Shown: positions 4,055 to 13,890 of the stretch, piece after piece
Layout: every line of letters begins with the position of its first letter
Numbering within the stretch: the first letter of the stretch is position 1
Assembly (NCBI GenBank): GCA_964612295.1
Contig: CAZTDY010000001.1
Span: forward strand, 48,032 to 112,031
DNA from: an uncultured bacterium
GTDB lineage: Bacteria > Eisenbacteria > RBG-16-71-46 > CAIMUX01 > WJJG01
DNA: 64,000 bases
Direction of reading: 5' to 3'
The notes under the pieces: generated by a model
The model's input: only the letters and a program-made list of their open reading frames with translations
What the model was told of the DNA's origin: nothing
Database searches by the model: none
Made by a program: the position numbers and the translations under genes

Positions 4055-6127
4055 ATGCTCGTCCACGCGCTTGTCATGACCAGGGTGCCGGCCACTGTGG
4101 CCGTTGCCATCCTGCTCCTACTTGCCCTCGGCTTGCCGGCTTGGGGGGAAGAGGAGACTGGCTCGGAGCCACGTCTCACCGAGATGAGTCTCGAGGAGCT
4201 GATGTCGATCGAAGTGACCTCGGTCTCGCGTAAGGGTGAGCCGCTTTCGGAGGCCGCGGCGGCGGCGTTCGTTATCACCGCGGATGAGATCCGTCGTTCG
4301 GGCTACACGACGGTCGCAGATCTCCTGCGCTTGGTGCCGGGAATGCTCGTCGGCCAGATCGACGCCAATAAGTGGGCCGTGAGTGCTCGCGGATTCAACG
4401 GACAATTCGCGAACAAGCTCCTTGTCCTGATCGATGGCCGGAGCGTCTATACGCCGCTCTTTGCCGGCGTGTATTGGGATGTCCAGGATCTTATGATCGA
4501 GGACATCGAACGCATCGAGGTGATTCGCGGGCCCGGCGCCACCCTCTGGGGGGCGAACGCGGTCAACGGCGTGATCAACATCATCACCTGCGACGCGGCC
4601 GACAGCGAGGGACTCCTGGTCAGCGGAGGGGGCGGGAATGTGGAGCGGGGTTTCGGGGCGGTCTGATTCGGGCACCGGCTGAATGATCGCGCTTCTGTCC
4701 GCGTCTACGGCAAGTACTTCGATCGGGCTGGATCGGTGGATTCGCTGGGAGAGACGCAGTCCGACGAGTGGACGTCGGGACGGGGCGGGTTCCGCCTCGA
4801 CTGGGGGGTGGGTTCTCGCGACCATGTCACCGTTCAGGGCGATGCCTACCAGGGCGATATGGGGGTGGTCTACCCCTTCCCGAGCAGCCAGCCGCCCTAC
4901 CAGGTGCAGATCGAGGATGTGACCGAAGTGGCGGGCGGCAATCTCCTCACGCGTTGGTCGCGCAACCTGTCGCCGACCGCCGCCTGGGGGGTTCAGCTCT
5001 ATTTCGATCGCACCGAGCGCTCCGACGTCTTCTTCACCGAGAATCGCAGCACGGTGGATGCGGACTTCCAGCACAGCTTCTCGGTGCGGGGCAACACGCA
5101 TCTGGTCTGGGGTGCCGGGTACCGCCGCGGTGAATGGGATTTCCTGGGCACGGAATACGCGGCCACAAAGGAAGGACTGGAAAAAGGTGATGAGGGTCTC
5201 CTGAGCGGATTCGTTCAGGGAAACTGGTCGACGGCGCAGGACAGATTACGCCTGACGTTGGGCTGCAAGGTCGAACACAAAACGAACCAGGCGGGGCTGG
5301 ACCAGGATCTGACCGAGATCCAGCCGAACGGCCGGCTCCTTTGGCTGCCCAACGATCATCACGCGCTGTGGGCCTCCGTTGCCCGAGCGGTACGAACGCC
5401 CACTCAGGTGGAGATGGCCGGCAATGTCTGGCTCGGATACGTGCCCCCCGGCGTGCCGGAGAACCCCGGCCAGGTTCCTCTGATGATCACCCTGGTTGGA
5501 TCGGAGGATTACGTCAGCGAAGAACTCCTGGCCTACGAGTGTGGATATCGCTGCCAACCTCGGGATGGCCTGACCTTCGACTTCGCGGCATTCTACAACG
5601 ACTACACAAACCTCCGGGGCATGATCCAGGGTGAGGCGGAGGTGCGGATGGATCCGCAGCCGCACGCCTTTGTGCCGATCATCCTGTCGAACGCGCAGGA
5701 GGGCGAAGCCTACGGGGCCGAGCTGGCCGCCGGCTGGCAGATGCTGGAAAACCTGCGTCTGCGGGCAAGCTACTCCTACTGGGATCTGAATCTGAAGAAC
5801 GAATTGCAGGACCTGTATGACATGGGCTTCAGCGAGGACAGCACCTGGCCGCCCCATCAGGTCTTGCTGCGGGTTTCCGCAGATCTCGCCCGGAATCTCG
5901 ACCTCGATCTCGTCGGCCGTTTCGTGGACGAATTGGGCGACTTCAGGATCGAGGCGTACACGGAGCTCGATGCGCGCCTGGCCTGGCGCCCCGCGAGCGG
6001 GCTGGAGCTTGCCGTCACCGGGCGCAATCTCCTGCAAGAACAACACCCGGAGCACATCTCCGAGTTAAGCGAGGTCGGGACCGAACTGGAACGTGGAGTC
6101 TATGTTTCGGCGAGCTGGAAACACTAG
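4055..6127 (+). pseudogene. TonB-dependent outer-membrane receptor (plug plus 22-strand barrel) interrupted by a single in-frame TGA at 4664..4666
   Basis: ORF 4055..4666 encodes a signal peptide, a TonB-box-like region and the plug domain (DGRSVYTPLFAGVYWDVQDLMIEDIERIEVIRGPGATLWGANAVNGVINI). The same frame continues straight after TGA with FGHRLNDRASVRVYGKYFDRAG and then the barrel to 6127. Other genes in the window use TGA as an ordinary stop. Confidence 0.8.
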
Positions 6128-11607: not shown

Positions 11608-11647
11608 GCGCCCCCGGGTCTTGACGACCTGGGGGCGCTTCTTTGTG
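11608..11647 (+). terminator. Rho-independent terminator after groEL (13-bp GC stem, 5-nt loop, T-rich tail)
   Basis: gcgcccccgggtc-ttgac-gacctgggggcgc followed by ttctttgtg. It lies between the convergent genes and may act in both directions. Confidence 0.55.
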
Positions 11648-11662: not shown

Positions 11663-13735
11663 CTATCTGAGGAAGGCTATGCGACGCACCAAGTCCACGT
11701 CTTGGCCCTTCAGCTTGACGTAGTAGATCCCGGCCGAAAGCGGTGGTCCTTGAGCGGAGAGATCGTCGCAGGTGAACGCATGGCGTCCCGCCGTTGCCCA
11801 ACCCTCCTCGAGGGATCGGATGAGCCGGCCGTCGGCGCCGTACATTCGCAGCGTCCTCTGCCCCGCGCTTGGCAGTGTGTAGTGCACGCGCAGTGCCCCC
11901 GTCACTGGATTGGCGACTCGCAGTTGTGGCTTCAGCCGGAGAGCCGCCTGATCGGGGACAGCGGAAGCTCCGGTGAGCAGCCATCCCAAGCAGCGGTGTA
12001 GGCAGAGTCGCCGGTCCGTGGCGTTGTTGATTCCCTCAAAGCCGAAGCCAAAGAGAATCGCTCGATAACTGCCGGTATCAATCTTCACCGCGGCGGCGCT
12101 GCTGGGGGAGAAATTCCAGATGACCGTGGCGTCGGTGTCGGCCGGGTCGATCACCCAGGCATACTCGTGATTGTCGGCACCGTCACCACCCTCAATAGTC
12201 AGGGCGAGTCCGTCAGAAACTGGATCCCCGCTGACCGGGTCGAGCGTTCGATCCGACGTATCCGAGCCGGTTACATCCGCGTGGAGGTAGTCGTGAAACC
12301 AAATCGGGATTTCATTGGTCGGCTCGTGGAGGCCGTAAATGTAGGGCTCCCAGCCAAGGAAATGACCATGGACCAGGAGGTTTCCACCGGCGGCAAGAAA
12401 GTCGGACAGCGCCGCCCGGTCACTTGCGATCAGCGCGGGCATGAAATCGCCGGTGAGCCAGACGACCGCCGGGAACGAGCTGAGAAGCTCATCCACCGTT
12501 CCACATCCACTGCGGTCGATCAGAGCATACTGGTAACCATGGTGCTCGAGAGCATCGACCACGTACTGCTCGTAGTCGGCGGCGCCATCATCATCCACAA
12601 CGAGGACCTGCAGACCTGAGGTCATCTGCGTATAGAGGAGCGCGCGCGTATCTTCCGGAGCACCGCCCGCCTGACTCAGGGCAAGGTCGATCCCGGCGTA
12701 GCCAGGAGCTCCCGCATGGCCTTCGAGATGGAGTTCGATATACTCCCCCGGGGCGAGGGTGACCTCAGCCAGTGAACCGTAGGACATCGTTTCGCTGTGG
12801 AGGCCTACAGTCCAGTCGGGCGGCCCCACCAGTGAAGCCTGGATCGAAAAAATGTCGGTCACGTTGCCCATGTTGTAGACGCGGAAGGGAGTCATCTCGA
12901 AGTCTTCAAACGGAAGACCGAGACCGACCTGCGAATCCAAGGCGCAATAGCGAAGAGCGTAGTCCGGGATCGGCTGCGTGTTGGCGCTGGTGAGAACCCA
13001 TTGGCTGTCGTCACTCGACCGGGCCGGTCCGTCGCGCTGGATGAAGGCGACCATCGTGAGCTCTTCCTGGACCCAGGACGCGTCCACGTCGAAGTTCGCC
13101 TGCACGTTCTGCATTTCGCCCAGCATGCTCACCGTGATGGGCACCTCGTCGATCATGACCCGGTTGACGTTGTCGTGCCAATCGTCATCGCCCGTGACAT
13201 CGTAGTAGAGGTTGTCTTCGGTCAGGGCGGCGCGCAGCATCAGGCCTGCGATCTCCGGCCCGTCCTCCACGACCTCGATGTCGAGATCGATCGATCCGGT
13301 CGGCGGCGTGAAGTCATGGCTGTTGATCGTGATCTTGAAGTGGCTCGGTTCACACAGTAGCCGATCGATGCTCGGAGCAAAGGCACCCCCGTCGAGCATA
13401 TAGGAGAAGCCCCCGAGCACGGTATTGCGCGGACCGCCGACATAGACTGAAGGATATCCAAGGATATCGTAGTAGGTCTGCATGCGCGCGTCGGAGTCAG
13501 CACACCCCAAGCCTCCCGAGGTCGCGTAGTAGCTGATGGCACTCATCTCATGGCCGCGGAAGAGAACCTGATCCGCCTCAATCCCGGAGGCGGCGTTTGG
13601 ACAGCTCGGTCACCAGGTGGCCGTACAGAATTCGAGGATAGGCGATGAGGGATGCCATGCGGACGCATCACCAGCCATGAGTCCAAGGGCGAGAACGACA
13701 ATTAGAGTGGACGGAATCGCAATCCAGCGAGACAT
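11663..13735 (-). pseudogene. Secreted protein with a GATase1/ThuA-like central domain and a T9SS-type (FlgD-Ig-like) C-terminal sorting domain. The signal peptide is separated from the body by an in-frame TGA at 13610..13612.
   Basis: ATG at 13735 gives MSRWIAIPSTLIVVLALGLMAGDASA|WHPSSPILEFCTATW, then TGA, and the same frame runs into the 627-aa ORF beginning at 13546. The C-terminus LRVANPVTGALRVHYTLPSAGQRTLRMYGADGRLIRSLEEGW...GIYYVKLKGQDVDLVRRIAFLR fits the T9SS CTD pattern. Confidence 0.65.
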
Positions 13736-13890
13736 AACGCACCTCCGTCACGTGGTTGGCGGGCGTCAACCTCAGAGGAAAGATGCATTTCTAACCGCGC
13801 AGGTCGACACGTATAAGGATAGCCGAAAGGGGCCCCGGAAGACAACGGCCAGCGACCGCACGCTCAGACGAAAGGAGGTTTGCCGCGGAA

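Follow-up and report, generated by a model that had tools for sequence, protein, structure and literature searches.

The question raised by this 64,000-nucleotide (nt) stretch of Eisenbacteria DNA, called the window below and used at its full length for all position numbers, is why the reading frame of an apparently exported protein on its minus strand contains a TGA codon at 13612..13610. A sequence-only reading had proposed that ATG 13735 opens a signal peptide, that the frame continues past the TGA into an annotated open reading frame (ORF) of 627 amino acids, and that the interruption could reflect pseudogenisation, sequencing error or stop-codon read-through. The layout is borne out by the sequence. 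By comparison with orthologous sequences, the TGA very probably encodes selenocysteine (Sec or U), and the segment 13735..11663 would then be a single gene for an exported selenoprotein of 690 residues. The thioredoxin motif W-x-x-x-C that surrounds this codon had been overlooked in the earlier reading.

On the minus strand, ATG 13735..13733 starts MSRWIAIPSTLIVVLALGLMAGDASAWHPSSPILEFCTATW, and one frame leads from it to the TGA and then remains open as far as the TAG at 11665..11663. The following features define the locus.

11663..13735, minus strand: predicted complete selenoprotein gene of 690 codons plus the TAG stop at 11663..11665, with a single in-frame TGA read as U42
13742..13746, minus strand: Shine-Dalgarno sequence GGAGG, read directly, 6 nt upstream of ATG 13735
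13658..13735, minus strand: Sec-type signal peptide predicted by inspection, residues 1-26, MSRWIAIPSTLIVVLALGLMAGDASA, with A-S-A before W27
13610..13612, minus strand: TGA, very probably the selenocysteine codon (U42), aligned to the first Cys of WCxxC in orthologs
13601..13612, minus strand: predicted redox motif U42-P-S-C45 (UxxC) with T-A-T-W in front, from the translation and the homolog alignment
11663..13546, minus strand: the 627-amino-acid ORF as publicly called, starting at the internal Met64 within the thioredoxin-like domain, with the same call on 22 contigs

The continuous frame, the GGAGG in front of ATG 13735 and the existence of full-length cysteine homologs (662-677 residues, spanning 96-99% of the 690-residue product) support the assignment of the signal-peptide piece to the 627-amino-acid ORF. 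By inspection, the predicted signal peptide combines R3, an 18-residue hydrophobic core and A-S-A followed by W27; the orthologs with Cys and those with Sec have an equivalent N-terminus that ends in A-x-A and is followed by WYP. The codon context T-A-T-W-[TGA]-P-S-C-P corresponds to a thioredoxin-type W-C-x-x-C in which the TGA stands at the first Cys.

The homolog search identified 25 close family members, the named ones of which belong to Candidatus Eisenbacteria. All full-length homologs have TATWCxxC, with the Cys exactly opposite the TGA, and all of the apparently short homologs (564-627 amino acids) start just past this position. In every case inspected, the DNA 5' of a short homolog encodes a signal peptide and an in-frame (T/S)ATW-TGA-xxC, annotated by the gene callers as stub ORFs of 36-38 amino acids. 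All public calls seen for TGA forms are split in this manner into a stub of 36-41 amino acids and a body of 564-627 amino acids that lacks a signal peptide. To count the codons used at this site, every position in all forward frames of 160 related loci was scored against the flanking protein motif with the central codon left unconstrained, which yielded 84 unique orthologous contexts with the following codons.

TGA: 49 contexts
TGC: 27 contexts
TGT: 7 contexts
AGC: 1 context
TAA, TAG or any other codon: 0 contexts

In this comparison of orthologs, which the sequence-only reading had suggested, the codon is Cys or TGA in all contexts but the single AGC. The TGA-form orthologs share 30-57% protein identity, and their frames are intact and conserved on both flanks. 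An exchange between Sec and Cys within sequence conserved on both sides is the standard criterion for recognizing selenoproteins independently of the selenocysteine insertion sequence (SECIS) (PMC13188914), and the TGA site fits it because its Sec/Cys pattern has conserved sequence on both sides.

These observations bear directly on the first of the proposed causes, an authentic pseudogene in which a nonsense mutation separates the signal peptide from the body of a decaying gene. In favour of this reading, the window contains a true nonsense TGA at a conserved Arg of another envelope gene, a TonB receptor, and in one related copy of the present gene (locus L006) there is an additional TAG and one stem pair is broken. 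However, TGA is retained at the identical codon in more than half of the contexts (49/84) across these diverged proteins, Cys is found in nearly all others, TAA and TAG are never found, the codon aligns to the catalytic Cys, and a covarying hairpin, described below, follows the codon in the TGA forms only. Pseudogenisation thus appears very unlikely for this gene.

A sequencing or assembly error, with TGC or TGT as the true codon, would be an obvious suspicion for metagenome-derived sequence, the more so as TGA is one base away from either codon. It is contradicted by six independently assembled contigs (L166-L171) from different samples and pipelines (JGI, ENA, Logan), which are identical to the window over 261 nt around the TGA, by the position of the codon outside any homopolymer, and by the recurrence of the same TGA in dozens of unrelated assemblies of orthologs. 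We regard the chance that this codon is an artefact as negligible.

The second line of evidence is an RNA hairpin that starts 16 nt past the UGA, inside the codons for A-A-S-G-I-E-A-D.

13573..13593, minus strand: SECIS-like hairpin with stem CCGCCUC (13593..13587), loop CGGGAUU (13586..13580) and stem GAGGCGG (13579..13573)

The published consensus for bacterial SECIS elements comprises a loop of 3-9 nt, a stem of 4-16 bp, a G among the first two loop nucleotides and a distance of 16-37 nt between UGA and loop, together with a minimum free energy of no more than -7.5 kcal/mol (PMC13188914). With its 7-nt loop, 7-bp stem, loop start CG, 23 nt from UGA to loop and local energy of -13.4 kcal/mol, the hairpin lies within all four structural ranges and within the energy limit. 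In the clade that shares the ...S/Q-G-I-E... context, it is found in the same register in all TGA genes and is absent from the Cys/Ser genes, the energies being -9.06 kcal/mol for 10 Sec genes vs -5.49 for 10 Cys/Ser genes (Mann-Whitney p=0.0004). In the 13 intact TGA sequences of this clade, all 78 cells of the 6-bp core are paired, compared with just 24-41% for slid controls, and compensatory double changes occur at three pairs of the stem.

Pair 24:36: U:A to C:G, at synonymous third positions of Ala and Glu codons
Pair 22:38: G:C to A:U, via Ala to Thr plus Ala to Val
Pair 21:39: C:G to U:A

The covariation score of the 13 sequences is 0.295 vs 0.167 for shuffled alignments, and was reached by 0/500 shuffles. 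Across the whole family, the 63 nt past the codon are more stable in Sec than in Cys forms at equal GC content (-19.0 vs -15.9 kcal/mol, p=0.004). Krumholzibacteriia and other lineages, with the protein context CPRARAGLAVM, have another design, in which a larger hairpin, spanning nt 28-49 and with G-U-C-A(U) as its loop, is combined with a small GCGC hairpin. The register of this second design was drawn from individual folds and then tested for pairing; it is 77.6% paired vs 34-44% for slid controls, and its covariation score was likewise reached by 0/500 shuffles, while RNAalifold on this heterogeneous type-B set returned no consensus. The arrangement is the one known from classical selenoprotein genes of bacteria, such as the fdhF-type genes of E. 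coli, and described by the consensus of Zhang and Gladyshev: directly after the UGA, within the coding region, comes a hairpin whose apical loop contains a G and lies 16-37 nt away. In contrast to the E. coli element, the hairpin described here is short (6-7 bp) and unrelated in sequence; it is formed by the codons A-A-S-G-I-E-A, and other lineages of the family have a different design in its place.

Read-through, the third cause named in the sequence-only reading, therefore needs to be considered in two versions. As programmed insertion of Sec through a downstream SECIS hairpin it agrees with the data, whereas generic decoding of UGA by other means, either leaky near-cognate read-through as Trp, Cys or Arg or a suppressor tRNA, the hairpin then acting just as a stimulator, is very improbable. 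Downstream RNA structures can in general stimulate read-through, and neither the window nor 872 kb of related DNA yielded a gene of the Sec machinery, both of which would suit the generic version. On the other hand, the stop codons of 47 long ORFs of the window with high GC content at third codon positions (GC3) are TAG in 25, TGA in 15 and TAA in 7 cases. Since TGA ends about one third of these genes it is an ordinary terminator, with no global reassignment and no apparent general suppressor. In addition, the site is where a CxxC motif has its nucleophilic Cys, the canonical position of Sec/Cys exchange, the hairpin agrees with the SelB-type consensus in spacing and loop G, and the closest family in the catalogue also consists of UxxC selenoproteins. 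The Sec/Cys pattern, the hairpin specific to TGA forms, the normal use of TGA as a stop and the six identical assemblies are thus our reasons for preferring a selenoprotein gene over a pseudogene, an error or generic read-through. The same stop-codon counts have a second aspect: TAG is the commonest stop of the window, which is unusual at a GC3 near 0.8, as TGA is usually the dominant stop in genomes of such composition.

In the predicted product, three regions can be distinguished after the signal peptide.

13016..13657, minus strand: N-terminal thioredoxin-like plus Omp28-like beta-sandwich module, approximately residues 27-240
11966..12610, minus strand: conserved alpha/beta domain with a ThuA/GATase1-like fold, approximately residues 376-590, with the motifs VDDDG, GQDIGWE-like, YLHA and GGDGA(N/D)N
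11666..11911, minus strand: C-terminal beta-sandwich domain of the sorting type (similar to FlgD_ig and to the type A C-terminal domain of the type IX secretion system, T9SS), approximately residues 609-690

The structure was modelled with AlphaFold2 on a Cys ortholog (P0003) that is 43% identical to the protein (predicted local distance difference test, pLDDT, 86.2; predicted template modelling score, pTM, 0.76). In this model strand b1 (29-35), the C39xxC42 motif and helix a1 (42-60) are followed by b-a-b-b-a, then by beta-sandwiches, the alpha/beta domain and a C-terminal beta-sandwich. As modelled, the N-terminal domain is a thioredoxin-like fold of the order b-a-b-a-b-b-a, the CxxC motif (UxxC here) standing at the N-terminal end of helix a1. 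The best NCBIfam match of the protein is NF045500, "Omp28-related selenoprotein", over residues 38-235. This is also the best NCBIfam match for all relatives tested (25-73 bits), with Sec or Cys at approximately profile position 51 each time. For the C-terminal domain, matches to FlgD structures in PDB were obtained, orthologs P0003 (29.9 bits) and P0013 (25.8 bits) exceed the cutoff of 23 of the T9SS type A sorting domain model TIGR04183, and PF18962 is found in the precomputed annotation of P0016, P0022 and P0024. At one Eisenbacteria locus an FlgD_ig-type tail is present on five adjacent genes, which fits the expectation for a sorting tag.

The fold and the sorting domain are relevant to a further possibility, namely that the locus yields two products, a 41-residue peptide and a cytoplasmic 627-residue protein starting from Met64 (ATG 13546). 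Gene callers consistently call the latter ORF, and for the T9SS cargo HBP35 of Porphyromonas gingivalis N-terminally truncated cytoplasmic forms from internal starts are reported (PMC2907840). Nevertheless, Met64 lies inside the thioredoxin-like domain, past b1 and a1, and Cys-form orthologs do not retain it as a start; the sequence before this internal ATG, on inspection, has no Shine-Dalgarno sequence comparable to GGAGG; and a C-terminal sorting domain would be pointless on a protein that is not exported. Independent use of two products is accordingly most unlikely, and a protein started at Met64 would at most be a minor by-product under selenium limitation.

Several results weigh against the proposed selenoprotein, its fold or its sorting tail. 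The search for Sec machinery suggested in the sequence-only reading was unsuccessful: tRNA-Sec, selA, selB and selD were all absent from the 64-kb window and from the 872 kb of related DNA. In particular, ARAGORN detected no tRNA-Sec in the window and 42 related loci, a Pfam scan of ~30 further window ORFs together with the precomputed annotation of the rest revealed no selA, selB or selD, and tblastn with E. coli SelA and SelD, for which the query sequences were approximate, gave no match in the 872 kb. As to the hairpin, the whole 71-nt region is no more stable than shuffled sequences (z=+1.24), the signal residing in the local hairpin only, and the covariation of the first design comes from 13 sequences that are related to each other, with coding constraints as a partial confounder. 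A search of the full window against Rfam at gathering thresholds gave no match; in-ORF bacterial SECIS elements are poorly represented in that database. At the protein level, there is no significant match to a Pfam thioredoxin family, the NF045500 score of 27.9 bits lies below the curated cutoff of 200 bits, and the match to Pfam PF11551 (Omp28) is below the gathering threshold of 34.9 bits. The C-terminal domain of this protein scores 13.1 bits (E 0.07) with TIGR04183 and 24.4 bits with Pfam FlgD_ig against a threshold of 27. The earlier suggestion of an exported protein with a C-terminal domain of the sorting type is supported; the cutoff of the T9SS model TIGR04183 is passed by the two orthologs, and the domain of the present protein remains below it. 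No Pfam match to the T9SS machinery itself (PorK/L/M/N, Sov, PorU/V) was obtained in the scan of window genes. A search for interrupted genes based on GC3 was rather unspecific; it missed this TGA site, and its matches were mostly adjacent genes in the same frame or non-coding frames.

The type of feature proposed here, a thioredoxin-fold UxxC selenoprotein with an in-ORF SECIS, is already well known, and a distant family has been catalogued. NF045500 corresponds to "Hypothetical protein GOS_C", a UxxC family in the 2026 catalogue of 119 prokaryotic selenoprotein families (PMC13188914). GOS_C was first reported in 2008 by Zhang and Gladyshev as a UxxC protein of thioredoxin-like fold with no assigned function, with 74 Sec and 312 Cys forms (PMC2398784). 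Both families have the thioredoxin-like fold, a single Sec in UxxC and many Cys-form homologs, but the proteins described here are multidomain proteins of 660-690 residues with additional ThuA/GATase1-like and C-terminal sorting domains, and their sources are Eisenbacteria, Krumholzibacteriia, Thermoanaerobaculia and related lineages, whereas GOS_C came from marine GOS reads. Because the scores of 25-73 bits are far below the 200-bit cutoff, we consider the family a distinct, distant relative of GOS_C and not a member of it. With thioredoxin, TlpA and DsbA-type UxxC selenoproteins, several of which are extracytoplasmic (PMC13188914), it shares Sec as the N-terminal nucleophile of CxxC at the start of helix a1; unlike in these types, an Omp28-like sandwich and other domains are joined to the fold. 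Among structures, HBP35 (PDB 5y1a) matches best. It is reported to have thioredoxin activity that needs both of its active-site cysteines, to bind hemin, and to depend on the Por (type IX) system for its secretion and glycosylation (PMC2907840, PMC3120885). HBP35 differs in having Cys instead of Sec, a solved chain of 314 residues and no ThuA/GATase1-like domain, and the sequence identity is ~16%.

From these comparisons we infer SelB and tRNASec as the decoding factors of this organism, as well as the export route, surface location and substrate of the protein, along the following lines. Translation would start at 13735 and the ribosome would reach the UGA at codon 42, where the hairpin 16 nt downstream would act as a bacterial SECIS and recruit SelB-GTP-Sec-tRNASec, resulting in Sec insertion without termination. 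The signal peptide, with a cleavage site after A-S-A26 predicted by inspection, would direct export through the Sec translocon, and the C-terminal domain would direct onward secretion and surface attachment. The U42-x-x-C45 centre is expected to work as a selenol/thiol oxidoreductase, which, by analogy with HBP35, is probably exposed on the outside of the cell.

What is new is this multidomain family with a signal peptide and a sorting tail, the occurrence of two SECIS designs over the same codon, and the uniform mis-annotation as truncated ORFs. We find it somewhat more plausible than its opposite that this is the first recognised selenoprotein family with a T9SS-type sorting tail, that is, with Sec enzymes on or released from the cell surface, and that it is widespread in little-known lineages of the FCB group and Acidobacteriota (Eisenbacteria, Krumholzibacteriia, Thermoanaerobaculia/Holophagae), with repeated Sec/Cys switching, at least two SECIS designs and 49 of 84 contexts mis-annotated as truncated ORFs. 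Literature searches combining Omp28 with selenoprotein and type IX secretion with selenocysteine retrieved nothing relevant, and a full-text search retrieved no paper naming both Eisenbacteria and selenocysteine. In this interpretation an apparently broken gene becomes intact and the systematic mis-annotation of TGA forms can be corrected. It also implies that Candidatus Eisenbacteria and adjacent candidate lineages decode selenocysteine, and provides the GOS_C/Omp28-related family with a multidomain and apparently surface-directed relative. A clade with hairpin-bearing Sec forms and hairpin-free Cys forms also offers a clean natural experiment on the building of a SECIS inside coding sequence.

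The sequence-only reading had grouped the TGA at 13610..13612 with another in-frame TGA of the window as a single phenomenon. The companion codon exists, in the following gene.

4055..6127, plus strand: TonB-dependent receptor in which the TGA at 4664..4666 splits the Plug (203 amino acids) from the barrel (463 amino acids)

A second Sec site was considered for this codon and rejected, as its column is a near-invariant Arg (117 of 119 homologs). All four independent assemblies covering the site carry the TGA, and an 82%-identical ortholog (P0029) is uninterrupted. A Sec-containing TonB receptor family, NF049945, with the motif FCYXU has been catalogued, and that motif is not located at the TGA. 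The codon looks like a fixed CGA to TGA nonsense change in a pseudogene or split gene. It is thus unrelated to selenocysteine, its grouping with 13610..13612 is unsupported, and two in-frame TGAs within one window can differ in cause.

Several variants were observed among the relatives of the family. At approximately 1555-1620 of locus L006 (CAZNJE010000003.1), the TGA form reads W-TGA-G-TAG-C, with the extra TAG two codons on, and one pair of the SECIS stem is broken (A:C); because of these two defects it may be a decaying Sec copy. The same genome additionally carries a Cys-form paralog (L012). Tandem paralog pairs are found in Thermoanaerobaculales (L055, at 1342 and 3197, both TGA) and in Holophagae (L042, at 1621 and 3497, both Cys). 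In some TGA forms, Thr or Gly takes the place of the otherwise conserved Trp before Sec (for example TSTT-U-GYCP and TAVG-U-PHCP), the forms without this Trp being L045, L049, L050, L052, L053, L055, L085, L109, L112, L164 and L172, and only two Cys forms lack it, L091 (Thr) and L107 (Ser). A low-GC ortholog of ~25% identity (L150 at 1528, Ga0307376_10000002) has the same full architecture, with the TGA in ITATW-U-SYCP, and the top NF045500 score seen, 72.6 bits.

In the Thermoanaerobaculales metagenome-assembled genome (MAG) contig JALOLD010000048.1 (L051, 3382..~4180), a gene of ~265 amino acids directly 3' of a Cys-form member encodes a signal peptide and HFTATW-TGA-GSC. NF045500 is its best match at only 24.9 bits, thioredoxin models match as well, and on this sequence basis it is a candidate for a further thioredoxin/Omp28-like selenoprotein. 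The middle domain alone (approximately residues 371-590) has matches of 38-42% identity in contigs of Altiarchaeales and Methanophagales (L079, L080, L121, L123 and others). As these matches are in archaeal MAGs, the ThuA/GATase1-like domain can be regarded as a widely shared module without a Pfam family.

Downstream of the selenoprotein gene, a further structure separates it from a convergent neighbour.

11608..11638: terminator-like GC-rich hairpin of 13 bp, 11 of them G:C pairs, between the end of this gene (11663) and that of the convergent groEL (11578)

The hairpin has a T-rich tail on the plus strand and is likely a shared or bidirectional terminator.

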